The notes: generated by a model not told the origin, from the sequence alone. Counted from the stretch's first letter, positions 13,648 through 28,371 are shown. The stretch is DNA of 32,000 nt from an uncultured Candidatus Bathyarchaeia archaeon (GCA_964533505.1 CAZHKA010000023.1:1-32000); one strand, 5' to 3'. A program made the numbers and translations.

Positions 13648-14073
13648 CTACTTTCGTAGAGCTTTGCCGATCATCACAAGGTCCGAGCGTTCCTCGTAAC
13701 CACATGCACTGAAGAAATGCAGAGACGTAGTGTTAGAATGGTAAATCTGAGCGTTCACTCTCTTCGCGCCCTTGCTTGCTAGCCGCTCCTCCAACTCACG
13801 GATAAGCTCGTTCGCTATGCCAAGTCTCTGATGCGACGGTTTCACAGCGAGATGATAAATCCATCCCCGCCGCCCATCCCAGCCGCCCATAACAGTTCCC
13901 ACAAGATCGCTTCCGTCCCTGGCCACGAGGAAGAGGTCAGGGTCCCTCTGGAGCTTCAACCGTATACCCTCCAAGTCATCCCCGGGCCTAAGAACCAACC
14001 CAGCTTCCTTCCATAGTCGTACAACCGAATCGTATTCCGCGAGATCAAATTCATTGATTCGGACGCTTGACAA
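13648..14073 (-). CDS. GNAT-family N-acetyltransferase
   Basis: GWIYHLAVKPSHQRLGIANELIRELEERL is the acetyl-CoA-binding motif A. 141 aa. Confidence 0.85.
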   Translation of the reverse strand: MSSVRINEFDLAEYDSVVRLWKEAGLVLRPGDDLEGIRLKLQRDPDLFLVARDGSDLVGTVMGGWDGRRGWIYHLAVKPSHQRLGIANELIRELEERLASKGAKRVNAQIYHSNTTSLHFFSACGYEERSDLVMIGKALRK

Positions 14074-14105
14074 TCAACTCACTCATGTCGCTTGTAGAGG
14101 TATTA

Positions 14106-14132
14106 GCGCCGCCGGCAGGATTCGCATCTACG
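14106..14132 (-). repeat. Fragment resembling the 3' end of tRNA-Asn (possible distal att site)
   Basis: gcgccgccggcagg (14106..14119) is identical to 28202..28215, which covers the first C of the CCA, the discriminator, the 3' acceptor strand and the 3' T-stem strand. It is in the same orientation, and partial similarity continues into the T-loop. No complete tRNA can be folded here. Confidence 0.35.
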
Positions 14133-14344
14133 TAGGTGAATTTTAAGGACACGGGAAAACCGGTTCAATTTTGGTCACCCGCACCACCACACCCACACAC
14201 ACACGAAAAAATCGAACGAACGACGGTTCACCTATTCCCTTTTCAAAGGTAGTCTAGCGAACAAATTACGACGGATGCGGCGATGAGTACACACACCATG
14301 CTTCCGACAATTGGGCGTGGAGTTTCTACTCATGAAATTTGTCA

Positions 14345-15105
14345 GGTTCAATCCTTGTTTTGATGGATTAGTCTTCCCGACTATCTAGCACGAGCTTACG
14401 GTATGGGCGCAGGCATGTTTCAATCCTTGTTTTGATGGATTAGTCTTCCCGACTTGGGTACTCTGGGTCGCCTCAGATCAAGTTTTCTAGTTTCAATCCT
14501 TGTTTTGATGGATTAGTCTTCCCGACTATGCTTACCGCGTTTGGTTCGACGGTTTACATTATGTTTCAATCCTTGTTTTGATGGATTAGTCTTCCCGACC
14601 TCATGCAGGGCATGGACACTTTTGAGGATGTCAGTTTCAATCCTTGTTTTGATGGATTAGTCTTCCCGACAATGTCTCCGTTGCGGGAAAACCGTTGAGG
14701 AACCTGTTTCAATCCTTGTTTTGATGGATTAGTCTTCCCGACATAGACCACGTAATCGTTGAGTGAATCGTAGTAGCGTTTCAATCCTTGTTTTGATGGA
14801 TTAGTCTTCCCGACCGAATTGGATGCAAGGGGTACCTCCGCCTGCACGCGTTTCAATCCTTGTTTTGATGGATTAGTCTTCCCGACGGATTTCTATAATT
14901 TGTTGGGCAGACAGTAGAGGGTTTCAATCCTTGTTTTGATGGATTAGTCTTCCCGACTATAACGTGATAGTTTGAGTTTGGCCTACACCGAAAGCGTTTC
15001 AATCCTTGTTTTGATGGATTAGTCTTCCCGACTTACTACGATAATGATGTCGAACATGTGTATATCGCGTTTCAATCCTTGTTTTGATGGATTAGTCTTC
15101 CCGAC
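14345..15105 (-). CRISPR. CRISPR array with 11 repeats of 37 bp and 10 spacers of 34-38 bp
   Basis: The plus-strand repeat is gtttcaatccttgttttgatggattagtcttcccgac. Repeats start at 14345, 14417, 14490, 14563, 14634, 14706, 14778, 14850, 14921, 14996 and 15069. Only the repeat at 14345 is degenerate (ggttc...). On the minus strand the repeat is GTCGGGAAGACTAATCCATCAAAACAAGGATTGAAAC. Its ATTGAAAC end matches the usual Cas6 8-nt handle, so transcription runs on the minus strand from the 15106 side. Confidence 0.97.
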
Positions 15106-15263
15106 TGCCACTTTTTTGGGTCGTTTTCGATTGTTTTGGTTTGATTTGAGCCTCATGTTGGTTTTTCATTTTCGGATCGTGGAATTATTCTAGCGGTTAT
15201 AAAGATCGTCTCACTCTTTGAGGCAAGTATAGCGTAGGATGCATGGAGTACTTCGGAGGACAG
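15106..15263 (-). promoter_or_regulatory. Putative CRISPR leader
   Basis: Non-coding AT/T-rich stretch between the cas4 stop and the newest (perfect) repeat. It contains a TTTATAA-like element on the minus strand, about 90-100 nt from the first repeat. The degenerate repeat is at the opposite end of the array. Confidence 0.5.
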
Positions 15264-15866
15264 CTACTGTTTCGCGAAGTTTGGCGTAAGGGATCCGACT
15301 TCGCATACCTTTCTGTAGCAGCATGTGAGACAACGGTTGCTGTAGCGGGCTGGAGGGCATTTCCCTGACACTAAAGTTTCCTTTGTTCGTTGGAGAATAG
15401 AAAGCGCTAGGTTGCGTATCTCTTCGGTTATGTTGACTTGGATCTCACGTCTCCTTGTTCTGTCAAACACGACTATTGCCTTTCTAACTTTCTTTCCAAG
15501 GGCCTCTTCGACAAGAAGCGAGAGTAGCCCTAGTTGGGTCTTGGTTGTGGTTCCTACGATGGCGTGGTCTGAGTATTTGCGTTCTATGATTATGACCTCT
15601 GTAGGTGTCTCTATGGCTTCATCTACTTTTCCTGAAAACAGTTGGCTCTCTGAGAATAGTTGGAGTTCGGTGACTTTTTTTCCTCTGGTTTTTCTAGGCA
15701 TGTAGCTGAGGTTCGTTATTGAGTGGCGTTCGTGGTACGCGCGGCCTGCTTTGACGCTTCCCTGTTTTCCTTCATACTGTTTCAAGCCAAGAACAAGTTC
15801 GTAGTATGTGAATTTGGGGCAGAAGGCGTTTTCGAGAGCATTAGTTACGGTCAGGTTGGTGTTCAA
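15264..15866 (-). CDS. cas4: CRISPR-associated exonuclease Cas4
   Basis: N-terminal Cys (AFCPKFTYYE), a RecB-type GKVDEAI...VIIIERK motif, and C-terminal CLTCCYRKVC Fe-S cysteines. The likely start is TTG 15866, which overlaps the cas2 stop (TTGA). The track ORF extends to 15953. Confidence 0.8.
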   Translation of the reverse strand: MNTNLTVTNALENAFCPKFTYYELVLGLKQYEGKQGSVKAGRAYHERHSITNLSYMPRKTRGKKVTELQLFSESQLFSGKVDEAIETPTEVIIIERKYSDHAIVGTTTKTQLGLLSLLVEEALGKKVRKAIVVFDRTRRREIQVNITEEIRNLALSILQRTKETLVSGKCPPARYSNRCLTCCYRKVCEVGSLTPNFAKQ

Positions 15867-16159
15867 ACTACTTCTATTGCCTTCTCGTTTGATACGTATT
15901 CCATGTCGAAACCTTGCCCAATTATGGTTATTTTTCCAAAGCAGTGTTTGCATGCAAGTATGAGGTAGATTGATTCGGGCTTGCGCGCGGCCTGTTTAAG
16001 GTTCTCGACTAGATTCTTCTTTTGCTGTGAGGATAGGGAGCCGCAGAAGACGCTCTTCTGGATTCTCACGAATCCCGCATTCTTGAGCGTCTGCATGATT
16101 TGTAGCCTCGTCTTATCGCTTGAGATATCGTAGACTGCATAGTACATGTTCTCCTTCAT
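15863..16159 (-). CDS. cas2: CRISPR-associated endoribonuclease Cas2
   Basis: MYYAVYDISSDKTRLQIMQTLKNAGFVRIQKSVFCGSL is the classical Cas2 beta1-alpha1-beta2 signature. 98 aa. Confidence 0.9.
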   Translation of the reverse strand: MKENMYYAVYDISSDKTRLQIMQTLKNAGFVRIQKSVFCGSLSSQQKKNLVENLKQAARKPESIYLILACKHCFGKITIIGQGFDMEYVSNEKAIEVV

Positions 16160-16163
16160 GAGG

Positions 16164-16982
16164 TCATGCCTCAGTTATGAACCGTTGAAGTAGCTTTCGG
16201 CAGTATTCCCAAGTATCCCTCTGAATCGGACGCGATAGCTCACCGATATATCGTGTCATCGCGTTTCGTCGGCCTTCTTTTGACAGGTAGACTTCGGTGT
16301 CTGAGCCTCTTTCTTCAAACCAAGAGTCTCTTATGATTCTCTTCGTGAACATCGTGATAACTAGTCGGTCAACTCTTGGTCGGAAGATCTCTATTATGTC
16401 AAAGACGAGTGTTGGTTTGCCGTAGGCGTCGGCGTGGTAGATTCCGGCGTTCGGATCTAGCCCAGAGAGTATCACGATCTTCTCGATGTCTGAATAGGCG
16501 TAGCCGTAGAGGTAGTTCAGAATCGAGTTGAACTCGTCTCTTGCGGGCTTTCTGCTTCGCTGTTCAAACACGTACTTGGTTGGGAGTATAGATGATATGG
16601 CTTTGAAGTATTCTGAGGCTGCGAATCCTTCCAATCCGAGGAGAGACTGTTTGAATTGCGGTGTGAATTTAAACGAACTAAGCTGCATGAGTGTTGATTG
16701 TATGTTATGAATCGCTTGGTTCAGTGTTTCTGTTCCGGCCTTCCTGTTCTTTCTGAGATGGCTGAGTAATCTCTTCTGTTCCGTGAGTTTAGTGGTCACG
16801 ATTGTCCTTGATATTTCAAAAGCCAGTTGCGAATCCTGGTTGAGGTACTGCCCTCGTCGAATCTCAGTTGCTCTTCCGGGTGCACTGGCCCAGAACCTTC
16901 CGAAGGGTCTGCCAGACCAATCGGCAAAAACAAGTTGTATTCCTTTCTCGAGACAGAGAGCAGCCGCTTGTGTGCTCACCAA
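16164..16982 (-). CDS. cas1: CRISPR-associated endonuclease Cas1; the 5' end (16983..17088) is disrupted
   Basis: GLDPNAGIYHADAYGKPTLVFDIIEIFRP and surrounding helices are Cas1 catalytic-domain motifs. The intact ORF lacks about 35-45 N-terminal residues, and remnants of them are visible upstream in shifted frames from ATG 17088. Confidence 0.85.
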   Translation of the reverse strand: MVSTQAAALCLEKGIQLVFADWSGRPFGRFWASAPGRATEIRRGQYLNQDSQLAFEISRTIVTTKLTEQKRLLSHLRKNRKAGTETLNQAIHNIQSTLMQLSSFKFTPQFKQSLLGLEGFAASEYFKAISSILPTKYVFEQRSRKPARDEFNSILNYLYGYAYSDIEKIVILSGLDPNAGIYHADAYGKPTLVFDIIEIFRPRVDRLVITMFTKRIIRDSWFEERGSDTEVYLSKEGRRNAMTRYIGELSRPIQRDTWEYCRKLLQRFITEA

Positions 16983-17176
16983 CGCGTTTGCGGTGATAAT
17001 GATTCAACAGTCAACACTACTTTATGTAGCGTTCTTCAACCGTCTTCCGGGTATGCTCCAGGTACTCTGTAATCGCGTCCTCTTTCATGATCTCGCCTAG
17101 CGTCCTTCTGGCAGTGGCAGTATGAAGTGTGTGTTGCTACTTTCTGTTTTAGGCTGGGCTTTGAACCTATTTGGGT

Positions 17177-17929
17177 CTAGGTCAACCGCAAGTTTCTCGT
17201 TCGTATCTTGACATTGTGGCCGTCCAAGTTGTGGATGGATTCAACTGGAAGTCTCCCCAGAATAAGCAGCCCGCCAACCCCCATAGCGGGGTCGTTCTCT
17301 TTCTCCTCGCGAGCTAATTTCATCCCATTTTTTGATTCAAGTTGAAGCTGTGCGATTCGCCTACCCGGGTAGGCAGTCAAGAACTCTAAGAACTTAGAAG
17401 GGCAACTTAGAAGGGCTCGATGCAATTTGCGAATCTCTTGCTTTTTCTTTGCTTGCTCTCGTGCCTCCAGAACAATTGAATCCCACCTATGTGACAGGTA
17501 TTTTTCGGCTCGCCATCGCCCTTCAGACGTTGCAATGTATTTCAGTAGTTTAGTAGGGTTGACCACATATGTTACAGCGAACATCCGAGTCTTGCCAAAA
17601 TAGCGCACCCATCCTCTTCGAAGCAACCGGATGTTTATGCCATAAGGTTGCTTCGTCGGATCATAAACCTCTGGACGCATCTTTCCAGCCCCGATTGCAT
17701 GCACGAGCAGTTCACCGAGGAAAAACATTGTACCACTGAATTTCGGTCGTTGATAGAAGAAGAAATCCTCAAGATCATCACGTGCATCTATGATCGTTCG
17801 ACAAAACGCCACATTATGAGCCCCTGGAAAGCTAACAGAACGGAACGTACCCCCAAGGCGGGTCGTCAATCCATAAGGCTTAAAACTTAAACCTACTTCC
17901 GCCGCAAGTGTTTGTGTTGATGATGTCAA
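17177..17929 (-). CDS. Uncharacterised protein at the head of the cas1-cas2-cas4 cassette; possibly Csa1-like, judged by position only
   Basis: 250-aa ORF on the same strand, directly upstream of cas1. The order X-cas1-cas2-cas4 matches type I-A adaptation cassettes (csa1-cas1-cas2-cas4). I could not confirm a PD-(D/E)xK motif. The start is uncertain: TTG 17929 overlaps the divergent neighbour, and TTG 17869 or later starts are possible. Confidence 0.3.
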   Translation of the reverse strand: MTSSTQTLAAEVGLSFKPYGLTTRLGGTFRSVSFPGAHNVAFCRTIIDARDDLEDFFFYQRPKFSGTMFFLGELLVHAIGAGKMRPEVYDPTKQPYGINIRLLRRGWVRYFGKTRMFAVTYVVNPTKLLKYIATSEGRWRAEKYLSHRWDSIVLEAREQAKKKQEIRKLHRALLSCPSKFLEFLTAYPGRRIAQLQLESKNGMKLAREEKENDPAMGVGGLLILGRLPVESIHNLDGHNVKIRTRNLRLT

Positions 17930-18819
17930 AGAGGCAGGCGTTAGTTACTCTTCTCTTGCTTTGTGCAGCGATTACACCGATGATTCAGGTTGCAGTTGCT
18001 AATGGACAAGATTTTACAGCCACTCTAATCGAAAATCGAGGTGACGGAGGCGGAAACAGGCCTAGTCCTCCTCCCAGAACCGGCGGAGGGGGTCCTCCCG
18101 GTCGTGGGAGTGGTCCTCCTCGACCTAATCCTCCCGCTATCAGCCTCCCTACCGCGCCGGGCCCAACTATCTCTCGGCCTACCGCTGGACCTTCGTTCAC
18201 AGGATCCAGGCCCTCATTCACTGCTTCATTCACGCCTTCATTCTCACGTTCGTTCACGCCTTCCGTGAGTTTCAGCTTCACCCGTAGCCTTTTCACGAGT
18301 TTTAGCTTCGACACTTCAGCTTGGACGGGAATCACCTTCACTCGTACTTACGAAACTAGTTACACGTTTAATCCCACTTTCACGTATACGTACGCTACTA
18401 CAACCAACTGGTATGGGTGGGGAGGATATTGGTATCCTGGAATGGGATGGTACCAACAACCCGTCTACTACAATCCGAGTACCGGATCCTTCACTCTGGA
18501 TCGAACGCTCTATGACCAAAACCAAAATCCATGCCTCTACTACGACTATTTCGTGTTCGATGCTCCAGCCGGACTGTCCGTAACCGCGCAAGTCTGGACA
18601 TCGGGTGCGCCAGTCAGTTACATGATTGTTCCTTCGTCGGTAGTTTCGCTTCTCACGAGTCCTAGTGGTTGCAGCACACTTGGAAGTTTGGGCCAAGGCG
18701 GGTCGTTTGGGTCAACTCCCACTCTATTGAGTTGGACAGCGCCTCAGAACAATCAATACGCGATTATCTTCTACTCAACAACATTGAACGGCAGTACCGT
18801 CTATTTCATCCCTCAATAA
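17908..18819 (+). CDS. Secreted protein with a Pro/Gly-rich linker, Ser-Phe-Thr low-complexity repeats and a C-terminal beta-rich domain
   Basis: Signal-like segment MMSKRQALVTLLLLCAAITPMIQVAVANG (probable start ATG 17920), then GGGNRPSPPPRTGGGGPPGRGSGPPRPNPP, then PSFTGSRPSFTASFTPSFSRSFTPSVSFSFTRSLFTSFSF. Confidence 0.6.
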   Translation: MFVLMMSKRQALVTLLLLCAAITPMIQVAVANGQDFTATLIENRGDGGGNRPSPPPRTGGGGPPGRGSGPPRPNPPAISLPTAPGPTISRPTAGPSFTGSRPSFTASFTPSFSRSFTPSVSFSFTRSLFTSFSFDTSAWTGITFTRTYETSYTFNPTFTYTYATTTNWYGWGGYWYPGMGWYQQPVYYNPSTGSFTLDRTLYDQNQNPCLYYDYFVFDAPAGLSVTAQVWTSGAPVSYMIVPSSVVSLLTSPSGCSTLGSLGQGGSFGSTPTLLSWTAPQNNQYAIIFYSTTLNGSTVYFIPQ

Positions 18820-19054
18820 TCAGATCCTGGCGCGTCGATGCGAAGATCGCGCCTCCATTCTCCTCCTTGGCTATTCCTAGTGAACGCTACAGAACATAAT
18901 ATCCGCAATCTGAATCGCAGATTAAAGAAAATGAATCTTAGGAGCTGTGTTGTTATGCGTGTGCATCTCTTGATGTGACTCAGTTGTAACGTAGTCGGTC
19001 TTCCAAGCGACTCCTTGTCAGCCGAGGAGTCGCCGCTGCCGCCTAGAACGGAGG

Positions 19055-19252
19055 TTAGAAGAAAATGATAAGATAAGAGCAGATAAGAGCAGTATCTTCA
19101 GTTTCAATGCCTGAATCTTGCATGAAGAGTTGTAGGAGATTGGCGCACTCCCGGATTCCAAGTCCTTGGCTAGAAATGCTTGGCTGCCTAAGCAGGGATC
19201 GGAAGTCTTCGAGCATTTCGTCTCGCACGTAGGCGGCAGATTGCTGATCCAT
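19055..19252 (-). pseudogene. N-terminal fragment of an M20-family (ArgE/DapE/CPG2-like) peptidase
   Basis: DEMLEDFRSLLRQPSISSQGLGIRECANLLQLFMQDSGIETE resembles the M20 N-terminus. The ORF ends after 65 aa. Confidence 0.35.
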
Positions 19253-19347
19253 TCAATCCACTGATTGGAATTGAGGTCGCACACGTTGAAAACGGTTTCT
19301 TACGTCAAATAAAAATGTCTGCGGGATACGCGAAGTGTCGCGGGTCC

Positions 19348-19488
19348 TTAGGTACTCAGACGTTTCTCCATTTTGGCTAATTTTCTTCCCACGATTTTCT
19401 TGGCGATTTTTACTCTACGTTTGGTCCTACGGATTTTACGTTTAGTCTGACGGATCTTACGTCTAGTCTTACGATCGGCTTGGGGCAT
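19348..19488 (-). CDS. Candidate 46-aa highly basic small protein
   Basis: Manual translation gives MPQADRKTRRKIRQTKRKIRRTKRRVKIAKKIVGRKLAKMEKRLST. It is below the ORF-track size cutoff and has no clear SD sequence. Confidence 0.3.
   Translation of the reverse strand: MPQADRKTRRKIRQTKRKIRRTKRRVKIAKKIVGRKLAKMEKRLST
19415..19477. repeat. Tandem 21-bp repeat, 3 copies
   Basis: The units are ctacgtttggtcctacggatt, ttacgtttagtctgacggatc and ttacgtctagtcttacgatcg. They encode the heptads RKTRRKI, RQTKRKI and RRTKRRV on the minus strand. Confidence 0.8.
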
Positions 19489-19933
19489 AAAGATCAAGCG
19501 GGCGTTTCAATTCTAATGTAATAAGAGTTCCTGATGGTTCTCGGTTAGCTCTCCACTTTCGTTGCAGACCACCGAATCGGAATATTAGACTTGGCTCTAA
19601 CGCAGAATACTCTGATACCAATGACACCAAACTGTGTGAAATGTGGTAGCCCAATGCGGTTGTTGTAGAGCTTCACCAAGCTGAAGGGTGAGAAGCGGGT
19701 TACAATTCGTTATACCCCACCCCAACCCAAAAGGGGGTACAGAGATTTCCCGGCTCAGATTTCGTGGAAGTCAACGTTCATCAGCGGCTCTGAGAAGAGC
19801 CAATCTTTCTTCTAAGAGCAAATACATGGTTTTCGGGGATTTGGATTTTCACGAAAGCCTCTCTTTCTACTCAGGCTCAACAATAACGTAAGTTGTAAAT
19901 CTCTAGTGAACCGATTAGGCTAGGGGTAAGGGT

Positions 19934-20404
19934 ACGGGTAAGTCTAAGGGAATTTTTCTTCTTTCTGCATGCTTCCTACTGCTAACAATAATTGAGGGAG
20001 TTCGCGCTCAACCGGGCATCACCGTTACCACGGACAAGAGCACTTATCATCCTGGCGACTCGGTCATCATCACCATTACGATTTCGAGCGTACCCTCCGA
20101 CACGTGCTTCCCCGTCGGAATAACTCCTATCACATCTCAGAATTTGCCTCTCTATTCTATTGGGGAGGTCTGTGGTTTGGGCGGTAAGTTGGCATGGACG
20201 ATTCCCAACAACGCAACGCTTGGCCTTTATGATGTCGAGGTCAGCACAGCCCCGGCGTCAGGGTTTAACGCATATGAATCATACGCTGTGTTCACAGTGA
20301 CAGGCCCGACACCCGTACCTGAAACACCATCAGTTCTAGGGTTACTACTTCCGGCATTGCTAGTAGGAATCTACGTCTCAAGAAGAAAGAGAACAGTTAG
20401 GTGA
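19934..20404 (+). pseudogene. Secreted Ig-like protein with a PEP-CTERM-like C-terminal sorting signal (paralog 1); the start codon is apparently mutated to ACG
   Basis: The frame is open from 19919. It encodes a signal peptide KGIFLLSACFLLLTIIEGVRAQPGITVTTDKSTYHPGDSV that is collinear with the 24683 paralog. ACG (19934) stands where the paralog has ATG, and the only canonical start (TTG 20144) would delete the signal peptide. The C-terminus is PVPETPSVLGLLLPALLVGIYVSRRKRTVR. Confidence 0.55.
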
Positions 20405-20425
20405 GTCGGAGTTAGTTAGTCGAAG

Positions 20426-20515
20426 TTAGTTAGTAACTACGACCATCTGCTGTCCACAACAGTTTTCCGCCACAACCGCCTCTCTTCCGCATGCGGCACA
20501 TCTGTACACGGGCAT
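20426..20515 (-). CDS. Candidate 29-aa Cys-rich mini-protein
   Basis: GGAGGTGAGG is followed by ATG, giving MPVYRCAACGREAVVAENCCGQQMVVVTN. The 96-aa track ORF upstream of this ATG runs through the conserved non-coding module and is unlikely to be coding. Confidence 0.3.
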   Translation of the reverse strand: MPVYRCAACGREAVVAENCCGQQMVVVTN

Positions 20516-20713
20516 CAGAACCTCACCTCCAGACAAAAAGCTCCGCATCACTAAGCGCCCATTGATGCGTATATTTGATTTTCCCATCTGCGAACCGTAT
20601 TGGATATGCATCCCGTGTATCCGAAGGTCTGAATTTATGGCGTTTGGGTTGATTTTGTATTGGAGTTGGGTTTCGAGAGAATTGGGCTTCGCCCGTGTAT
20701 GCGTGGAGTATAA

Positions 20714-20758
20714 CAAAATAAGAAAATAAGGCGGAACGGCCCGCCGCTCGTGCGAGCC
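20714..20758 (-). terminator. Putative terminator after sORF A: two GC hairpins plus a T-tract
   Basis: On the minus strand: GCTCG-CA-CGAGC, then GGCGG-GCCGTT-CCGCC, then TTATTTTCTTATTTTG. Conserved in copy B (27467..27511), where the only change falls in a loop. Confidence 0.4.
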
Positions 20759-20845
20759 CTAAGCTACGATTTCCTCTTGTCGAATGTTCTTGTCGTGCTC
20801 AGTATCTAGTCTCATTCTAACTTTCTTTTTTGGTCTCGGCGCCAT
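20759..20845 (-). CDS. Small basic peptide, family member A (28 aa)
   Basis: AGGAGGTGTTTACAG precedes the ATG. The product is MAPRPKKKVRMRLDTEHDKNIRQEEIVA. Confidence 0.45.
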   Translation of the reverse strand: MAPRPKKKVRMRLDTEHDKNIRQEEIVA

Positions 20846-21092
20846 CTGTAAACACCTCCTATCATTAACCGGGAAGGCCTAAGCATGTCGGCATATAAGG
20901 GGAGTTGGAGATACAGTCGAAATAGGTAATTATACTCCATTTCCACCCAGTAGAATAGGGGCGAAGGGTATCCTTGTTGACGTGGCCGGGCAAGATGCCT
21001 TCTATAGATGAAGCTCACGCAACTGCGAAATCTTTGTTAGGTATGAGCTTTCTTGCGGTCAAGCAACCTACACTCCTTACCTCAGTCCTAGC

Positions 21093-21329
21093 TCAGAATT
21101 TGCAGTTCGAAACAGGAAATTCTCGCTGACGGTGAACCTGATGAAGCATGCGATTTGAACCGGAGTTATCAAATCCCAATTTGCCGACTACCCTACGTTT
21201 TGCTCTACAGGCGGAAGGAATATGCAACAGTTTGTTCATCTGGGCATTTTTGCATTCTCCACAATAAACGCACATCAATACTCCGAACGGCATCGCATGA
21301 TGATATTCATGGTCATGTTCGTGAATCAT
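21093..21329 (-). CDS. His/Cys-rich hypothetical protein
   Basis: An internal ATG gives MIHEHDHEYHHAMPFGVLMCVYCGECKNAQ... (78 aa). The longer 128-aa track ORF is also possible. No family recognised. Confidence 0.3.
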   Translation of the reverse strand: MIHEHDHEYHHAMPFGVLMCVYCGECKNAQMNKLLHIPSACRAKRRVVGKLGFDNSGSNRMLHQVHRQREFPVSNCKF

Positions 21330-21946
21330 GACAGGTTCACTACGGCTACCAAGATTCAAGCACCACTTAAACGGGCGGCACCTCTTGTGTGCACCACGGA
21401 TGAGTCTCTGCGATTCTCGAGGCGTTTCTGTTCGTTGAGGGCGGCCATCAAACCGGATCTGCAAACCCTGACTATTCACTCCGTAGGAGGCGGTTTTGTG
21501 TATTGGAATGCCGAACGCATATGTGACGGAGGAAGACTGAGAGAATAAGAATCTGCAATGTCATAGAAGAGACGAGTTTCAAAAGCCCCGCCCTCAAACG
21601 TCACGTATCGAAGTCTGTTCGCATAAGCGTATGAGGCATCATCTAGCTAAGATCGTGCTCAAGTTGGTAGGATTTTTACATGTCCGAAGTCTCTTCAGAA
21701 CCAGACACCAAGTACCTAGATCCCCGGGATTCGCACCATCAGTGCGTACGCACACAATTTGAACTGTCGTCGTTCGTTGGGGCGGACCGAAGATTGTTTT
21801 CCTTATCACGATAAGTTCGAGAGGACATAGCTTGTTGAGCAGCATGATCTTGGGGAGCGTCTGCCGTAATCCGACACGCCACCTGTCCAGTGTTAGTGGT
21901 AAGGTAATGACCGGTCGCTTGTCTGGGGCATGCAACGGATTCGACA

Positions 21947-22210
21947 CTATTTCCTCGCTAATGAACCAATGGGATCCCAGAAGGGTAAAACTACGGGTTC
22001 GGTGTCAAGGACCTTCACGAGTTCTGGGGACAGATACTCCTTCCTCACAATAGCTTCGTAGAGATAGTCGTCGAACCATTCATCCATCATGTACATGTAC
22101 CCTTTATGGCCTACTGCTGCTCCCCAGCTGTTTTCAACTCGCCATTTCCTAGGATTGCCTTTCTGTTTCGGGGGTTCTCGTTGAATGATTGAGAAAAGAG
22201 TGCTATATCT
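21947..22210 (-). pseudogene. C-terminal fragment of aminopeptidase C / bleomycin-hydrolase-like (C1B) cysteine peptidase
   Basis: Manual translation gives ...KGNPRKWRVENSWGAAVGHKGYMYMMDEWFDDYLYEAIVRKEYLSPELVKVLDTEPVVLPFWDPIGSLARK, which matches the conserved PepC C-terminus. An in-frame TGA lies upstream, and the remaining N-terminal ~350 aa are missing or scrambled. Confidence 0.6.
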
Positions 22211-22342
22211 TCAAAACTCAAACGCTTTTCCAATGACTTCCCGACTCGACGTAGTTTCATTAGCAGCCAAAATATGCTTTCCTACAACAACCCCTTTTGT
22301 GGAAGCTGAATTGTTGAACTCGTTCTGTCTCAGGGGAAATAG

Positions 22343-22830
22343 TCAGGAAAGCCGCATCGGGCGGTAGGGGGACTCTTTCTCAGCCTCGGCTATCTCCTTC
22401 TTCACGACTTTAAAGTAGACGATCCATACGAGCGCAAGCATCGCGATGAGCCCGACCACATCCGGTAAGATCGTGGCCACCGTATCAAAAAGGCCGTGCA
22501 GAAGCGCCGCGATCCCCAACCCGTAAAGCGCAAGCCACGAACGGCCGCGCACTTTCGCTTCTCCAAGATAGAACCCTATAATGCTCTCAGGATGCCAACT
22601 CCGACGCCATATTGGAAAACGTAAAACGCCGTTCCTAGTCTCTGATGCTTTCGCCTCAGGTTTGGGCTGGTGACATCACTCGACTTCCTTTCCTCCTCCA
22701 TGAATGGAGAGCGCTGAGGGGGACCCAGGCAAATGAAATTGTCTTCAATAGGCGTATGCCCGCTTTGATCTATGAGAAAATCAGAACCGGCCGGTTTTCC
22801 TCATTGGGCGCCACAGAGAGAAGTTAGTCT
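22343..22830 (-). pseudogene. PrsW-family intramembrane protease remnant
   Basis: The 22343..22552 ORF carries GFYLGEAKVRGRSWLALYGLGIAALLHGLFD-like C-terminal helices. Upstream pieces (VAPNEE..., YGVGVGI...) lie in other frames interrupted by stops. Confidence 0.5.
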
Positions 22831-22938
22831 TCGCTGACAAACCTAACGTGATAGGTTTGCTGCTGCTACGATACTGGTACCATGACAAGAGGAAAGGAAT
22901 TACTTTCAGTCAATTGAGACCTAGGATCTGGTAAAGCC

Positions 22939-23979
22939 ATGACGTTTAGGAAACCCGCTAGACTAAAACGAAAAGACATAGTAGCGGTCCTCTCGCCGTC
23001 GAAGGGGCTTCCTAGCAAATTCCCTCAGGTGTACGAGCTTGGAGTAAGGAATCTTGAGAAACTCGGACTAGTTGTGAAGGAATACCCAACAGCCAGGGCT
23101 GATAATCAATTTCCAATTACGAGAATCCCAGGAAGCGGGCGGAGGATGTGAACAATGCGTTCGCTGATCGGGAAGTCAAGGCTATCGTATGTACGATTGG
23201 AGGAGATGAATCTGCAAGGATTCTTCCTTTACTAAACAATGAGGTCATTACAGCTAATCCAAAGATTCTGATGGGATACTCTGACATTACCACACTGCTG
23301 ACTTATTGCACACAACTCGGCTTGGTCACCTTTCACGGTCCCACGATTATGGCCGGTTTCTCGCAGCTTAACTATCTACCAAGGGCTTTCGCTGACCACG
23401 TTTCGGATCTTCTGTTCGACCCAAAGCCAACGTATCTCTACGAGTCCTATGACGAATATTCTGACGGTTACCCTGACTGGACGGACGTAACCAACTTGGG
23501 TAAAGTCAAAACCACCAAGAAGCAATACAGGCTGGAACTGGTTGCAGGGAAACTCCTGCGCACAAGGGGAGCTGTTCGGCGGATGCATCGAGGTATTGGA
23601 GTTCGTTAAAGGGACACCCTATTGGCCAAGACCAGACTTCTGGGAAGGAAAGATTCTCTTTCTGGAAACATCAGAAGAGAAACCGAGCATAACGAACGTC
23701 CAGCGATGGTTGCGCAATTACGGGTTGCACGGAATTTTTGGCAAGATAGGCGGCTTGCTCTTCGGAAGAGCTAGGGACTACTCGGAACCAGAAAAGATGC
23801 AGTTGGATAATGTCATCGTTTCTGTCGTAGCAAAGGAATTCAATCGACCTGACCTACCGATTGTCTCGAACATGGACTTTGGTCACACAGACCCTCAGTT
23901 CATTCTACCCTTAGGAGTGCTAGCTCAAGTTGACTGTCAGGATAAGAAGTTCAGATTGCTGGAATCTGCTGTTCTCTGA
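22939..23979 (+). pseudogene. S66 peptidase (LD-carboxypeptidase / MccF-like) split by two frameshifts
   Basis: Three consecutive track ORFs (22939..23151, 23148..23609, 23542..23979) together form one S66 protein: KDIVAVLSPS..., RAEDVNNAFADREVKAIVCTIGGDES..., GYSDITTLL, GELFGGCIEVL..., ILFLETSEEKP..., NMDFGHTDPQFILPLG. The frame changes near 23105 and near 23550. Confidence 0.75.
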
Positions 23980-24200
23980 GTACAGTGAGATTGGAGATCG
24001 TGATTTCAAAAGTCTGAAGGGAGTGATTCTTCATACGTTTCTGCCATTAGACCACCACAATATCACACTGTTTAATCCCCTATCTGGCCTCCTCTGATCG
24101 ATCGTTTCTTGAACCTGCTGTATGTGCAGAAGCTATATGCCGAAAGTAGTTGCGGCAAATTGGATGGGTCTCTTCACGTCAGCTTTCTTCTTATCCTCGG

Positions 24201-24482
24201 TCATTGTGTTTCCTCCTTTCCGAAGCCATCCATCTTCTGTGCCTTGTATATGGTAGCTGTCTCGCAAAATTCCTTGGTTAGCTCATAGAACTTCTTGGCC
24301 AACTCTTCATCAGGTGTAGTGTAGCAGCTAAAGGTGCTGAAGTCTACGTGGGCCTTATCGAAGTGGGCGTTCAACATCTTATGGACTTTTTCGTAAAAGT
24401 AGGTGCGCCTAGATTCGTTCTTAGTGCTTAGCTCATAATCTATTACGAACAACCATCCACTCACCAACGACATGCCATACAC
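24201..24482 (-). CDS. Hypothetical 93-aa protein, possibly a ferredoxin-like (Cas2/VapD-like) fold
   Basis: The pattern LFVIDYELS...RRTYFYEKVHKML...VDFSTFSCYT...DEELAKKFYELTKEF...ATIYKA resembles the beta-alpha-beta-beta-alpha-beta layout of Cas2. The assignment is weak. Confidence 0.3.
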   Translation of the reverse strand: MYGMSLVSGWLFVIDYELSTKNESRRTYFYEKVHKMLNAHFDKAHVDFSTFSCYTTPDEELAKKFYELTKEFCETATIYKAQKMDGFGKEETQ

Positions 24483-24682
24483 CTGTAGAGCTGAAGCTTT
24501 ACTAGAGTTCCGAATAGTCTTACTTCGGTTTGACTGTTGGAAAGGGGTGAGAAATAATGGGTTTAGATGAGGAGGAAAATGATGATGAACAAAGTAATGA
24601 TGAAGATGGAAGACGAAGAAGATAATGAGGAAATCTTCATTTGCCTTAACTTAAATTCTCTAGTGAACTGAGGAATACGGGT

Positions 24683-25159
24683 GTGAGTATGAGTAGGTTT
24701 AAGGGGATTTTTCTTCTTCTTGCATGCGTCCTACTGCTAACAATAATGGGATTAGCCCATGCTCAAGGGTCATCTATCACTGTAACGACGGATAAGACCA
24801 CTTATAGTCCCGGAGATACTGTCCGCGTAACCGTTACTGTGACTGGCCCAATCACCGGCCCAGGCTTAACCGTTGAAATTGTGCCTGTGCCAATGTCTTC
24901 AGGTCTATTCCCGGTTGCAGCGGGAACTCTCTCCGTCAGCGGAGGCACCTTAGCATTGACACTTCCTAATAGCACAACGCCCGGCCACTATGACGTTGGG
25001 GTAGTAGCAGAAGAGGGAGGAACATTCACCCTGGACCCGGCCGTTGGAGTCACGGTGACAAAACTGACACCGGTACCTGAAACGCCCTCAGCTCTTGGGC
25101 TACTGCTTCCGGCAATGTTAGCAGTGATAATCGTTCTAAGAAAAAATAGGTTAAGGTAG
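24683..25159 (+). CDS. Secreted Ig-like protein with a PEP-CTERM-like C-terminal sorting signal (paralog 2)
   Basis: Signal peptide MSRFKGIFLLLACVLLLTIMGLAHAQG, then ITVTTDKTTYSPGDTVRVTVTV. The C-terminus is a tripartite signal: PVPETPSALGLLLPAMLAVIIVLRKNRLR. Confidence 0.7.
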   Translation: MSMSRFKGIFLLLACVLLLTIMGLAHAQGSSITVTTDKTTYSPGDTVRVTVTVTGPITGPGLTVEIVPVPMSSGLFPVAAGTLSVSGGTLALTLPNSTTPGHYDVGVVAEEGGTFTLDPAVGVTVTKLTPVPETPSALGLLLPAMLAVIIVLRKNRLR

Positions 25160-25161
25160 GA

Positions 25162-25398
25162 TTGTCAATGTCTTCGACTAATTTACCTGAAGTCAAGGTC
25201 GTTGTTTGTCCGAAATGTGGAAGCGAGATGGTTACAACACCACAAACACCGTTTCATGGACTTGCTGCCATTGACGTCAAAGAAGCTGCTGACCAACAAC
25301 CAGCAAAGCACATCACCGTATTCCTACCTGTGAAGGTCTATGAGTGTGTGAACTGCCATTACATCGAACTCTATGGAGCCGCTAGGACCAGTAAGTAA
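25162..25398 (+). CDS. Small zinc-ribbon protein
   Basis: A CPKCG...CVNCH pair. 76-78 aa. Lies immediately downstream of the sorting-signal protein. Confidence 0.5.
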   Translation: MSMSSTNLPEVKVVVCPKCGSEMVTTPQTPFHGLAAIDVKEAADQQPAKHITVFLPVKVYECVNCHYIELYGAARTSK

Positions 25399-25449
25399 GG
25401 CAGATTAGAAAAATAGGTTAAGGTTAGTTCGATTACTTCTGTTGTTGGG

Positions 25450-25650
25450 TTACGCTTGTAACGATTTCGTAATCAGCGCAACAGCTTCTTCCATCGTGAT
25501 TGCTGCCCCGTCTCTTCTTGAGATGCTTCCTCTACCGGGAACATCTACTTCTGTTCCTTGTGCTAAGATCTCTACAGGCTTGGACTCTACCACGTATTTC
25601 CGTTGCCAATCTCCGCCTAGGCCGTTACAGTACGGCCAGGGGATTTCGTA
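25450..25650 (-). pseudogene. Degenerate paralog of the 26311..26484 CxxCxGxxG zinc-finger peptide
   Basis: The open frame YEIPWPYCNGLGGDWQRKY... follows an in-frame TAA. It has no ATG/GTG/TTG start, and the first Cys is replaced by Trp. Confidence 0.25.
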
Positions 25651-25860
25651 TTATCCTAATTCCGTTAGACCTAGTATCTTATCAAGCGAAAGACGAGAGT
25701 CCTTCAGCGCTCTGACGAATCCATAGTTGAATTGTTTCGATATGATGGCTGGTCGCTGTAAATTTTAGCGTCTGCCTCTTAGCGACTTTGCCTTGATGAG
25801 TTTAGAGTTCCTTTAGCGAAAGCTCATCGGACTAGGTGCGTCCGCGAGTGGAACGAAACA

Positions 25861-26304
25861 ATGAGAAGAGAAAGATTCATTCTCGGGGCAGTACTTGTAA
25901 GCGCTATCATTGTTATTGCGTTTCAGGCATACCTTCTCAGCTCACTAACGTCAAGCGTAGCGTCAAGTCCATCCTTCTCTCCTTCAAACAACTACCCAAC
26001 GGACCAACCCTCGACCTTGACCTTGACCGGTCCACTTACAACGACAGCAGTCTCACCAGTATGCGCTCTTTACAGTAGCCCACCTTGCGCAATCTGGGTC
26101 GGTACACTTTACTACATTACGATCAACGGCGTGAATTACCGCCTTATCTTCCCAACGTCAATGAAACCGCCGCCCCCAATAAACGGCATCCGGATCATCG
26201 TGACTGGAACTTACGTGACGCCCTCAACCTACCAATACTACCAATACACACCTCAGCTGTCTTTCCGCGGCGACATGTACGTCATATCCTACAGCATTTC
26301 CTAG
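25861..26304 (+). CDS. Membrane-anchored or secreted small protein; C-terminal domain related to that of 1198..1875
   Basis: N-terminal TM segment FILGAVLVSAIIVIAFQAYLL, a Ser/Pro/Thr linker, then YYITINGVNYRLIF...IRIIVTGTYVTP...GDMYVISYSIS. Compare YYTLHN...INGQFVTVSGQMFTGP...GSYINVTSVS in 1198..1875. Confidence 0.55.
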   Translation: MRRERFILGAVLVSAIIVIAFQAYLLSSLTSSVASSPSFSPSNNYPTDQPSTLTLTGPLTTTAVSPVCALYSSPPCAIWVGTLYYITINGVNYRLIFPTSMKPPPPINGIRIIVTGTYVTPSTYQYYQYTPQLSFRGDMYVISYSIS

Positions 26305-26310
26305 ACTCAG

Positions 26311-26484
26311 CTAAGGATCCGGGGCAAGAATTTTCCGTAGTCCGTGGCATCCACGGCATTCAACCCAGACGCCTGTTTCGGTTTCGACGGTTTGACCACG
26401 ATACTTTTTGGGTCCGAGCACCCATTGCCAATCTCCACTCATCCCGTTACAGTATGGGCATTGGATTTCCTCACGTCCGACCTC
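26311..26484 (-). CDS. Small DnaJ-CR-like zinc-finger peptide (CxxCxGxxG twice); start codon unclear
   Basis: The open frame EVGREEIQCPYCNGMSGDWQWVLGPKKYRGQTVETETGVWVECRGCHGLRKILAPDP has no canonical start. It begins right after the tiny ATG-ACT-TAA that overlaps the stop of the upstream ORF. Confidence 0.35.
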   Translation of the reverse strand, partial: EVGREEIQCPYCNGMSGDWQWVLGPKKYRGQTVETETGVWVECRGCHGLRKILAPDP

Positions 26485-26489
26485 TTAAG

Positions 26490-26660
26490 TCATGGAGCTT
26501 GTGCCATCTCTATGTGTTGGGTAAGTTCGCCGTCCTTCAGCTTCCAAATTCTGTGGCAGTGCCTACAATAGTACCATGCTAGAGGCTCTAACCTGGTGCC
26601 GCTCCATTTGTATTCTAATGAGTATAGGTCTAGCATCCTTGAACAGTTAGGGCAGTTCAT
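26490..26660 (-). CDS. 56-aa zinc-ribbon protein
   Basis: Manual translation gives MNCPNCSRMLDLYSLEYKWSGTRLEPLAWYYCRHCHRIWKLKDGELTQHIEMAQAP. Below the ORF-track cutoff. Confidence 0.45.
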   Translation of the reverse strand: MNCPNCSRMLDLYSLEYKWSGTRLEPLAWYYCRHCHRIWKLKDGELTQHIEMAQAP

Positions 26661-26790
26661 GACTTGGCGTTGAAGCTGAATCTGATTTATTTCGTAACGT
26701 GGATTGAATAATAGCCTGTGTGTTGTGAGAAAGTAATCGGCATACTAGCCGTAAACCGTAAATGCTGAGCCAACGATTGGAGTATTCTAG

Positions 26791-27054
26791 TTGAGTCAAT
26801 TGAATGAATTGAGTAAATTGAGCGAATCGACCCGAGCCGAATATGAGGCATTCAAAAAGGAACTACATGATTTTTCAAGGAAGTTTGGGAGAGCCAAAAC
26901 TACTAAGGAAGTTCACGCTGAAATCAAACTTGCCAGTAAAATGGTTCGCAGAATCTGGAGATTGCAGAGGAAAATCTACAGGGAAGACTTAGAGAACGCA
27001 AAGAAGGATATCACAGAACTCAGACAGCGAATCGAGGCATTAGAAAAGAAATAG
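26791..27054 (+). CDS. Coiled-coil small protein
   Basis: 87 aa, charged and heptad-like (…EYEAFKKELHDF…RIWRLQRKIYREDLENAKKDITELRQRIEALEKK). Confidence 0.5.
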   Translation: MSQLNELSKLSESTRAEYEAFKKELHDFSRKFGRAKTTKEVHAEIKLASKMVRRIWRLQRKIYREDLENAKKDITELRQRIEALEKK

Positions 27055-27108
27055 ATATAAAAAATAGAATTGGGCCTGCGGCCCACGACATTAGGTTGGC
27101 GCACAGAA

Positions 27109-27378
27109 ATGGGGGCCGTTGAATATAAGACGGTTTACAGACCGTACGTCACTAAGACCTTGATATCTCAAAGAGACGAGGACAGGTCTCGTGATGTTGG
27201 CGTAAACGAGGACTTCGATAAGGTGCTAAACGAACACGAAGACGGGTGGAGAGTGAAGGATTGCGGGGTAATAAACACACAGACCCACAGCATATTTTGG
27301 GCCTTGCTCGAAAGGGAGGCGCCCTCGACCGCAAGCTTCCAACCTAACTATCCAATACGTACATCTCGCACATCCTAG
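27109..27378 (+). CDS. DUF4177-like small protein
   Basis: MGAVEYKTVYRP...FDKVLNEHEDGWRVKDCGVI...IFWALLERE resembles the DUF4177 pattern (xEYKxV...LNxxGxxGWxL...). ATG 27109 is preferred over TTG 27070. Confidence 0.45.
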   Translation: MGAVEYKTVYRPYVTKTLISQRDEDRSRDVGVNEDFDKVLNEHEDGWRVKDCGVINTQTHSIFWALLEREAPSTASFQPNYPIRTSRTS

Positions 27379-27386
27379 AACCCCGT

Positions 27387-27705
27387 TTTATGGCGCCTAG
27401 TCTGATTTTGTATTGGAGTTGGGTTTCGGAAGAATTGGGCTTCGCCCGTGTATGCGTGAAGTATAACAAAATAAGAAAATAAGGCGGAACGGCCCGCCGC
27501 TCGTACGAGCCTTAAGCAACGAATTCCTCTTGTCGAATGTTCTTGTCGTGTTCAGTACCTAACTTCATCTTAACTTTGCGTTTCTTAGCCAACCCCAAAC
27601 ACCTCCACTAATTGCCTAGAATGATCTGAGCGTCGTTTAGGCATATAAGGCAGCTTGGAGAAGAAGTCATAAAGGGAGAATATTCCGCATTTCCACCTAG
27701 TAGAA
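27387..27705 (-). repeat. Duplicated ~320-bp module, copy B
   Basis: See copy A (20634..20955). Shared elements are the TATA-like gcatataagg, catttccacc(c/t)agtagaa, the 3' half of the sORF, and the hairpins with T-tract. Confidence 0.85.
27512..27592 (-). CDS. Small basic peptide, family member B (26 aa)
   Basis: GGAGGTGTTTGGGG precedes the TTG. The product is (M)AKKRKVKMKLGTEHDKNIRQEEFVA. Confidence 0.45.
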   Translation of the reverse strand: MAKKRKVKMKLGTEHDKNIRQEEFVA

Positions 27706-27846
27706 CATACGGTTAAATAATCATGTCTCTTAATGGTGATTTTGGCGAGGCGAATTTGAATGGTGGACAAAAGGAAAGTCAAGTTGAATCTGCGTGTCTT
27801 GTTCCCTGACAAGGCAGGGACAGGTTAGCAAATGAGGTGAGCTTGA

Positions 27847-27945
27847 ATGGTGAAGAAGCGTATGGGCAAGAGGAGGAAGGTCAAGATGACACTTCAAGGT
27901 GGTCCTCCCCAAGCTGTCCCTGCCACGGACGAGTTAGTTGCTTGA
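27847..27945 (+). CDS. Small basic peptide, family member C (32 aa)
   Basis: GAGGTGAGCTTGA precedes the ATG. The product is MVKKRMGKRRKVKMTLQGGPPQAVPATDELVA, which shares the basic N-terminus and the acidic-hydrophobic xELVA C-terminus. Confidence 0.35.
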   Translation: MVKKRMGKRRKVKMTLQGGPPQAVPATDELVA

Positions 27946-27994
27946 GTTCATAGCTGACAAGGTAAGGCTAGATTACGTAGGGAGATGAAGTTGC

Positions 27995-28084
27995 ATGGCG
28001 AAGAAGCGGAAGAGTAAGATGAAGTTGGACGCACGTTGGAACCCATCTGGACGTAAGCTGCAAAGAAGTTGGAAGTTCCAGTGA
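27995..28084 (+). CDS. Small basic peptide, family member D (29 aa)
   Basis: GGGAGATGAAGTTGC precedes the ATG. The product is MAKKRKSKMKLDARWNPSGRKLQRSWKFQ. The N-terminus is near-identical to member B, but the C-terminus differs. Confidence 0.35.
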   Translation: MAKKRKSKMKLDARWNPSGRKLQRSWKFQ

Positions 28085-28199
28085 GGAGCCTAAGCCGCTA
28101 GTCACCCTCGGCTTGAGGGCATTGTAATTTCCACACCTTTATCGAGTGTATTGTGTATTGTTATGGCATAAGGAATAGGAAAAGCCGTAGGTTGGATAG

Positions 28200-28335
28200 T
28201 GGCGCCGCCGGCAGGTATCGAACCTGCGACCAACGGGTGTCTGCCCGTTTAACAGCTTCAGCCCCTTCAAGGTTTGTTGAGGGTCCGCTGCTCCACCACT
28301 GAGCTGTCGTCTGCGCTGTTCGCGTATACGGCGGC
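28200..28335 (-). tRNA. tRNA-Asn(GUU) with three putative introns and an encoded CCA
   Basis: The reverse complement starts GCCGCCG and ends CGGCGGC-G-CCA. D arm: GCTC-AGTGGTG-GAGC. T arm: GCAGG-TTCGATA-CCTGC. Variable loop: TGGTC. The anticodon loop CTGTTAA is flanked, after removing the insertions, by GCGGG/CCCGT. The insertions are about 22 nt (about 28306..28327), 28 nt (28257..28284) and 11 nt (28239..28249). Confidence 0.75.
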
Positions 28336-28371
28336 TAGTGTGCCTGTTCGGCGGCGAGGCGCAATTTGCTT

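Follow-up and report, generated by a model that had tools for sequence, protein, structure and literature searches.

The GNAT-MoeA interval and its tRNA-Asn gene

The DNA analysed here, referred to as the window, is a stretch of 32,000 nucleotides (nt) from an uncultured Candidatus Bathyarchaeia archaeon (GCA_964533505.1 CAZHKA010000023.1:1-32000). Its core genes form two flanks, of which the left one encodes a CoA ligase, Hyp proteins, POR subunits, an aminotransferase, two PhoU/AbrB proteins and GNAT, and the right one MoeA, SRP19, S8e and ScpB. Between them lies a block of accessory DNA (14120-28201), bordered by a short partial copy of a tRNA-Asn gene on the GNAT side and by the intact tRNA-Asn gene on the MoeA side. 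A first-pass annotation, made from the sequence alone, had proposed that this block may be a decayed element integrated at tRNA-Asn, and we followed up this proposal by comparison with related loci. The features of the two junctions, including a short open reading frame (ORF) near the right one, are:

14085..14105, minus strand: ancestral 3' trailer of tRNA-Asn, which forms the chromosomal arm at the distal junction; the start codon of GNAT is 12 nt away
14106..14119, minus strand: distal partial copy of the tRNA-Asn 3' end, resembling an attachment (att) site; 14 nt exact; colinearity with the relative L176 ends here
14120..14344, no strand: left arm of the inserted DNA; first ~13 nt a degenerate T-arm (8/13), the rest featureless
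27706..28199, no strand: right arm of the inserted DNA, ending in 'ccgtaggttggatag', with an inverted third small-ORF copy (~27995-28084, plus strand) and the inverted repeat I1
28200..28335, minus strand: intact tRNA-Asn(GUU) with three introns (Rfam, ARAGORN after intron removal, 11-gene alignment); proximal att copy at 28202-28215

Because of its three introns, the tRNA-Asn gene is missed both by ARAGORN, which reported no tRNA on the unspliced window, and by the gathering threshold of the Rfam tRNA model (27.7 bits where 29 are needed; the match has 48 nt inserted in the anticodon arm). The putative introns occupy non-canonical positions at 28326-28305 (22 nt), 28284-28257 (28 nt) and 28248-28238 (11 nt), with borders that were set by eye and could move by a few nucleotides. 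Their removal leaves a 75-nt sequence with a canonical cloverleaf, which ARAGORN calls as tRNA-Asn(GUU). When 11 related genes are aligned, the exons prove invariant and the variation lies in the three inserts, which keep their positions across the clade; in the T-stem, a compensatory C-G/G-C change is seen among these genes. Conserved exons, variable inserts, the pattern by which archaeal multi-intron tRNA genes are recognized, and the ARAGORN call therefore identify a genuine multi-intron archaeal tRNA. The first-pass annotation had placed an intact tRNA at this boundary, ahead of moeA/srp19/rps8e, and after intron removal this placement is confirmed. Multi-intron tRNA genes that standard tRNA finders miss can thus hide integration sites.

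Useful relatives, whose loci are given L numbers below, were found via the PhoU-domain neighbour of GNAT and via MoeA protein matches. MoeA scans of GTDB species representatives and of JGI (Joint Genome Institute) metagenomes returned only relatives of <=70% identity or short contigs, and the closest species representatives are Bathyarchaeia with a MoeA identity of 47%. The relatives used are about equally distant from the window (PhoU 93-95%, GNAT 71-79%, MoeA 62-70%, flanks 70-78% nt identity). Short contigs of the same species (97-98% nt identity) are L167, L168, L179 and L180; the last two, which were assembled independently, bear out the left part of the block at that identity. On the 12-kb contig P0002, PhoU is 100% identical.

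Junctions of the block with the chromosome

The 14-mer GCGCCGCCGGCAGG is present in exactly two copies in the window, at 14106-14119 and 28202-28215, both on the plus strand, and a search of the window that allowed one mismatch gave no extra matches. In the tRNA gene it spans the 3' strand of the T-stem, the 3' strand of the acceptor stem, the discriminator and the first C of the encoded CCA. Ungapped extension of the repeat in the same orientation (14101-14132 vs 28197-28228) yields 25 identical positions in 32 nt, or 78% identity. Dinucleotide-preserving shuffles give an expectation of 0.02 matches, and none of 100 shuffles contained two or more. The alignments of the left flank to eight relatives stop at window positions 14083-14119, and those of the right flank begin at 28197-28202. 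Most of what the first-pass annotation had said about this repeat is borne out: that the acceptor and T-stem 3' strands of tRNA-Asn recur in the same orientation at 14106..14119 (exact search), that weaker similarity continues into the T-loop (the extension above), and that the left copy lies where core genes give way to accessory content (the ends of the eight alignments). The count of the 14-mer within the window likewise finds only the two junctions. Its reservation that a GC-rich match of 14 nt could have arisen by chance is contradicted by the shuffles, by the trailer match described below and by the partial copies found in relatives.

Both flanks are kept in at least eight relatives, and the GNAT-MoeA interval between them is variable. 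It measures ~0.5 kb in L176, 0.76 kb in L173, 1.5-2.1 kb in L169, L171 and L172, 7 kb in L161-164, where it holds unrelated genes (DUF7523/ACT, beta-eliminating lyase, Kelch-like), and 14.6 kb in the window. L176 (JGI Ga0120198_0000474) represents the exact empty site, in which GNAT is followed by ~27 nt, the intact tRNA-Asn and then MoeA. Its sequence, '...ttcgacaacaaactcactc tcccagctagaggcaata|GCGCCGCCGGCAGG|tatcgaacctgcg...', runs straight into the intact tRNA-Asn, and the left junction of the window reads '...ttgacaatcaactcactcatgtcgcttgtagaggtatta|GCGCCGCCGGCAGG|attcgcatctacg...'. Colinearity between the window and L176 covers 14040-14119 and includes the whole 14-mer, past which the window diverges. 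The search for an empty site, which the first-pass annotation had suggested as a check on its proposal, thus yielded one exact case with its breakpoint at the repeat and, in L173 and L175, two near-empty ones.

The sequences next to the two tRNA ends are swapped. On the GNAT side the partial copy still adjoins the ancestral trailer: ATGTCGCTTGTAGAGGTATTA matches the sequence that abuts the intact tRNA-Asn in L081, L178, L161 (17/18 in the core stretch) and L176, and the native-trailer motif ATGTCGCT.GTAGAGGT directly adjoins the intact tRNA in L081, L178 and L161. Beside the intact tRNA of the window stands a different trailer (ccgtAGGTTGGaTaGTG), unlike that of L081, L161 and L176; the non-ancestral 'ccgtaggttggatag' directly adjoins the encoded CCA. 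At 14/17 positions this trailer matches the one (acgcAGGTTGGgTtGTG) in the more distant genome L084, where the contig ends 25 nt past it. The arrangement matches the B-O-P' / P-O-B' outcome that a reciprocal attB x attP crossover would leave.

According to our analysis, the segment 14120-28201 is probably a genomic island that arose by Campbell-type site-specific integration at the 3' end of tRNA-Asn, later lost its recombinase and decayed. A circular DNA would have undergone recombination at the 3' end of tRNA-Asn(GUU), a gene with introns, with the crossover inside GCGCCGCCGG, the invariant acceptor-stem stretch of the 14-nt identity. The incoming DNA would have brought a new 3' trailer and left the tRNA intact, and the original 3' end with its native trailer would have been displaced by 14.1 kb, to 12 nt from the GNAT start. 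A tyrosine-type integrase presumably catalysed the reaction, and the bulk of the block would have arrived together. Internal rearrangement, during or after acquisition, duplicated a two-gene module and nested a 2.2-kb insert.

Contents of the block

Between the two arms, the block contains:

14345..15105, minus strand: CRISPR (clustered regularly interspaced short palindromic repeats) array, 11 repeats of 37 nt and 10 spacers (Rfam RF01320)
15264..17003, minus strand: cas4, cas2 and 5'-truncated cas1, a type I-B adaptation stump (Pfam, NCBIfam)
17177..17929, minus strand: truncated member, 250 amino acids (aa), of a family with a winged helix-turn-helix (wHTH) plus a domain of unknown kind; reduced to the family's C-terminal ~145 aa
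17908..18819, plus strand: predicted secreted proline-rich protein of 303 aa, no family match
19919..20956, both strands: module M copy A, with the gene of a secreted ~160-aa protein (plus) and the conserved segment with a 28-codon ORF (minus, ~20759-20845)
21940..22233, minus strand: Peptidase C1_2 pseudogene that has lost ~1 kb from its interior (Pfam: C-terminal 68/438 positions only)
22346..22675, minus strand: fragment of a PrsW-like intramembrane protease (weak; Pfam E=0.026, partial profile)
22918..23976, plus strand: LD-carboxypeptidase (Peptidase_S66) pseudogene, N and C domains in different frames
24650..25156, plus strand: module M copy B, secreted-protein gene
25150..27386, plus strand: nested ~2.2-kb insertion with small zinc-ribbon and coiled-coil ORFs, splitting module M copy B
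27387..27705, minus strand: module M copy B, conserved segment with a 26-codon ORF (~27512-27592)

In the six frames of 14001-28400 Pfam matches only Cas4, Cas2 and Cas1, the C-terminal part of Peptidase_C1_2, a PrsW fragment (weakly) and both domains, N and C, of Peptidase_S66. The cargo listed by the first-pass annotation is largely there, namely the CRISPR array, secreted proteins, small ORFs and dead peptidase genes, of which there are three; its adaptation cassette is present only with a truncated cas1. The left arm (14120..14344) shows no similarity to any relative's insert.

The CRISPR array has a degenerate terminal repeat at 14345 and a leader at ~15106-15263. The Cas1 of the window has 272 aa vs ~318 aa in all homologues, with residues 1-37 missing and the breakpoint at ~17003. 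Its closest relatives (75-77%; L181-L183) are encoded in full type I-B-like operons, cas8-cas7-cas5-cas3-cas6b-cas1-cas2-cas4-array, and the I-B effector module cas8b-cas7-cas5-cas3 as well as cas6b are absent from the window, which therefore holds only a stump of such a system. The spacers match sister-strain arrays only, and no spacer matches were found in the window or in the retrieved loci of relatives. A leader-proximal spacer (15033-15068) is present in the window and absent from the sister strains L179 and L180 (97-98% nt), which suggests recent uptake despite the truncated cas1 and the lack of nearby effector genes, or alternatively loss in the sister strains. Internal spacers have been lost in L180. 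Directly past the complete I-B array that is closest to the window's stump, L181 carries a 372-aa tyrosine-recombinase-like gene (L181:13099-14217), a hint that this CRISPR-Cas lineage may travel on integrative elements.

The 250-aa ORF beside cas1 is a truncated gene and no recombinase: it aligns only with the C-terminal part of the small wHTH family, in which the winged helix stands at the N-terminus of full-length members. It has no match in Pfam, NCBIfam or PHROG, and its predicted structure has a predicted local distance difference test score (pLDDT) of 33.

Module M consists of a gene for a secreted protein of ~150-160 aa and a segment of ~250 nt, and its duplication is seen as the repeats D2-D5. 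The spacing of these repeats (D3/D4 ~4755 vs D2/D5 ~6750) is the basis for the nested insert, whose ORFs have no Pfam or PHROG assignment. The duplicated 250-nt segment was also considered as an RNA; it has no Rfam match, and RNAalifold covariation was weak in the three sequences available. Indels among the copies are multiples of three, which argues for a tiny ORF rather than an RNA. The ORFs form a basic family of 26-29 codons (MAPRPKKKVRMRLDTEHDKNIRQEEIVA and variants) at ~20759-20845 (minus), ~27512-27592 (minus) and ~27995-28084 (plus) in the window and at ~17500-17590 in L161, where the copy lies beside tRNA-Asn and no gene has been called. Every copy has GGAGGTG in front of it and a hairpin plus T-run behind it.

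The remnant of the C1 peptidase is 83% identical in nucleotides to two segments of L006 (3106-3325 and 4380-4448), where the gene is apparently of intact length and called as two overlapping ORFs. Core genes of the L006 group are only 65-73% identical to those of the window. This difference suggests that DNA near tRNA-Asn may have been exchanged laterally between distant Bathyarchaeia.

Recurrent insertion at tRNA-Asn and the origin of the block

Partial copies of the tRNA 3' end that start at the same nucleotide as the one in the window were found in L169 (4424, one mismatch), L171 (4612 and 5336) and L172 (6996). In these relatives they enclose small inserts of their own, and the site is therefore a recurrent insertion hot spot. 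It is occupied in tandem in L171, where three tRNA-end copies bracket two different segments, and L172 holds a decayed cassette remnant followed by an intact cassette; the partial copy of L169 is preceded by the same trailer that ends the cassette of L172. The GNAT-side junction of the oldest copy in L171 is the same as that of the window and the sequence beyond the core differs, so that we read the two junctions as apparently parallel events at one site. In L169, L171 (5336) and L172 the partial copies bear the T-stem allele (GGCAGG or GGGAGG) opposite to that of the resident tRNA. The crossover would therefore have fallen within the invariant GCGCCGCCGG stretch, and the attP sequences would have evolved on the tRNA of another lineage. 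The distant group of L006, L001, L085 and L086 showed no convincing partial tRNA copy, its one match with 2 mismatches lying inside an EamA coding region.

The inserts of L169, L171 and L172 include cassettes of 0.7-0.9 kb between tRNA-Asn and the partial 3' copy. Their genes and the remnants of such genes are:

L169:4493-5008, minus strand: LAGLIDADG-like gene
L171:5661-6161, minus strand: LAGLIDADG-like gene
L172:7097-7579, minus strand: LAGLIDADG-like gene
L173:1790-2005: remnant of a LAGLIDADG-like gene, in the L173 trailer
L172:6676-6963: remnant of a LAGLIDADG-like gene

The sole product of each cassette is a protein of 160-171 aa with a LAGLFDSEG motif and a C-terminal HTH. It scores 22.1 bits against Pfam LAGLIDADG_3, just below the cut-off of 22.5, and 2e-13 against phrog_5046, and its only PDB matches are I-AniI and I-HjeMI. 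L169 and L171 share 84% identity in the cassette protein and 62% in MoeA, while L171 and L172 share 65% in the cassette protein and 71% in MoeA; judged by these values, the phylogeny of the cassette protein is incongruent with that of the host flanks. Neither hmmsearch with a 3-sequence profile against the six frames nor tblastn detected a LAGLIDADG remnant in the window. The cassettes resemble free-standing LAGLIDADG homing-endonuclease genes, which are likewise single small genes with a fixed conserved target and an incongruent phylogeny; the window has no such gene. Our literature search returned no report of a homing-endonuclease cassette bracketed by a duplicated tRNA 3' end, and this is not a known feature. 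The cassettes are a testable lead on small selfish genes that exploit archaeal tRNA ends. As a speculation that we consider unlikely, the tRNA-Asn 3' end in this clade may be the target of an undescribed minimal cassette, which repeatedly invades and decays, carries a LAGLIDADG-like endonuclease plus HTH only and is bracketed by a duplicate of 14-19 nt that leaves the tRNA intact; the 14-kb island of the window might then have arrived or persisted through the same break and repair and not through an integrase.

Several observations weigh against site-specific integration of one element at tRNA-Asn. No integrase, transposase or recombinase was found in a six-frame Pfam search of stop-to-stop segments of at least 45 aa over 14001-28400, as the first-pass annotation had already stated from its own reading, and tblastn found no homologue of the L181 integrase in the window. 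The reconstructed attP halves, which would represent a free form of the element, have no exact match in IMG/VR; as PHROGs and NCBIfam found nothing viral or plasmid-like among the remaining ORFs of the block, there is no support for a provirus. The composition, which the first-pass annotation had named as another check, supports its view in part: GC content is lower throughout (0.473 in the block vs 0.511 and 0.528 in the flanks) and the tetranucleotide profile deviates (correlation with the flanks 0.48 vs 0.64), the latter in a patchy manner, and the shift is confounded by low coding density and by overlapping windows. Gain of the block in this lineage and its precise loss in L176 would look alike, because all informative relatives are only ~75-78% identical. 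A single module M occurs in L161-164 (L161 16842-17688), where it adjoins tRNA-Asn at a distance of 310 nt on the chromosomal side of the native trailer, a position that a one-step cargo does not predict. Similarly, the C1 peptidase of L006 lies ~5-7 kb from tRNA-Asn/MoeA with no partial tRNA copy, a short match of L086 lies in the same neighbourhood, and the C1 remnant of the window is likewise within ~5-7 kb of the tRNA-Asn/MoeA junction. Given the internal duplication, the nested insert and the pieces found beside tRNA-Asn in other lineages, the block is therefore unproven as one element. Such pieces fit an island that exchanges tRNA-proximal DNA between lineages, or successive integrations, and the evidence from the junctions stands.

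Successive integrations are the core of one alternative, in which two or more elements would have entered a re-formed tRNA-Asn site one after the other and deletions would have erased the internal att copies. We regard this serial accretion as somewhat unlikely, and it is a refinement of the integration proposed above, not a contradiction to it. L169, L171 and L172 show tandem occupancy directly, the block is compositionally patchy, and it holds module M twice with the 2.2-kb insert nested in one copy. However, the block has no internal copy of the core (with up to three mismatches there are two matches, one in coding sequence in the same orientation at 20249 and one on the opposite strand at 18144), and the sequence after module M copy A is unlike the tRNA-proximal sequence after copy B. 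Another strain could also have donated the island, through repair of a double-strand break or through homologous recombination on the GNAT and tRNA-MoeA flanks, with the break perhaps made by a LAGLIDADG-type endonuclease and the partial tRNA copy inherited from the donor. The cassettes of L169, L171 and L172 at exactly this site, their disagreement with the flanks in phylogeny and the 83% identity of the C1 fragment to L006, which hints at lateral exchange, speak for such a replacement. We nevertheless find it quite improbable: the window lacks a LAGLIDADG remnant, the endonuclease assignment is sub-threshold and its target putative, and reciprocal junctions with swapped trailers are the product of site-specific recombination, whereas gene conversion needs none.

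Finally, the block could be ancestral and have been lost from the relatives by unrelated deletions, with the 14-mer a chance GC-rich repeat. That other lineages have module M and the C1 peptidase close to tRNA-Asn would agree with this, as would the fact that the available relatives are all fairly distant. Against it stand the 21-nt native trailer beside the left copy, whose 17/18 match at a given anchor is far beyond chance, the colinearity with L176 that stops exactly at the repeat, the four further partial copies with the same boundary in relatives and the expectation of 0.02 for the 14-mer in shuffles. An ancestral block is accordingly very improbable indeed, and a chance repeat in an ancestral region is effectively excluded.

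Integration at tRNA-Asn thus remains our preferred explanation. Of the first-pass proposal of a decayed element at this gene, the integration (from the empty site, the repeat and the trailers), the immobilization and the decay are upheld, and the status as one element is not shown. The island is immobile because it has no recombinase. The label of an integrase-bearing element fails on the integrase, and the block is better described as a decayed, immobilized island that works like one. About 14 kb of this genome, the window's only CRISPR array among them, would accordingly be DNA that was acquired laterally and is for the most part dead, and neither core metabolism nor a functional defence locus should be read into the block.

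Williams is said to have distinguished, in 2002, sublocation classes of bacterial tRNA-linked genomic islands. With bacterial islands of this kind the block shares the order of intact tRNA, island and 3'-terminal partial repeat, the reuse of the site and possibly the atypical composition; unlike them, it is archaeal, has a target with three introns and has lost its integrase. She et al. reportedly described SSV-type and pNOB8-type integration with 'gene capture'. With such gene capture in Sulfolobales and Thermococcales (PMC7253208) the block shares the partial tRNA repeat left behind and integrated DNA that is fixed and decaying. SSV-type elements leave int(N) and int(C) halves at the borders; in the window block none was detected, and the six-frame Pfam search gave no integrase-like fragments near the borders (14120-14344 or 27706-28201).

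Integrated elements of Thaumarchaeota mostly target tRNA genes, intron-containing ones included, and typically their 3'-distal part, and the cryptic integrated elements NitVie-E4 and NitEve-E4 carry type I-B CRISPR-Cas (Krupovic et al. 2019, PMC6563490). These cryptic elements are the closest known kind, and the type of event is already well known. The block is like them in being an archaeal (Thermoproteota-related) insertion at the 3'-distal part of a tRNA with att repeats, a CRISPR array and I-B-type cas genes; they keep an integrase and a complete cas suite, whereas the block has no recombinase, has lost cas8/cas7/cas5/cas3/cas6b and retains a truncated cas1 (PMC6563490). In 'Caldiarchaeum subterraneum', a tRNA-Thr fragment accompanies a 1.8-kb recombinase element (Sugahara et al. 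2012, PMC3293823). That case and ours share heterogeneity between populations or lineages at a multi-intron tRNA locus, with a displaced fragment that brackets the insertion, but Caldiarchaeum has a displaced 5' fragment together with a recombinase, and the window a displaced 3' fragment and no recombinase (PMC3293823). For Bathyarchaeia few integrated elements with defined att sites are known, and the tRNA-Asn integration hot spot is documented here across a radiation of uncultured members.

Other kinds of change were seen at the same locus. On the MoeA side of tRNA-Asn, L174 carries an IS200/IS605-type OrfB/TnpB gene (L174:4854-5357; HTH_OrfB_IS605, E=1.4e-9), a second kind of mobile element at the tRNA-Asn locus. 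In L178 (1-10000), genes for Peptidase_M3, DUF7121, PNP_UDP_1 and a prenyltransferase lie left of tRNA-Asn, and in L176 they lie on the right side, beyond SMC; the two gene orders therefore indicate a chromosomal rearrangement with a breakpoint at the tRNA. On the right flank, SRP19 is preceded by two moeA paralogues in tandem in many other Bathyarchaeia loci (among them L001-L009, L011, L019, L032 and L071), and the window (29927-30211 region) and its close clade have a single moeA. The left flank of the window encodes two paralogous proteins with AbrB/MazE-N and PhoU domains (3487-4581 and 12561-13634), the second of which is unusually conserved (93-95% aa identity) given the ~75% nt identity of the flanks.

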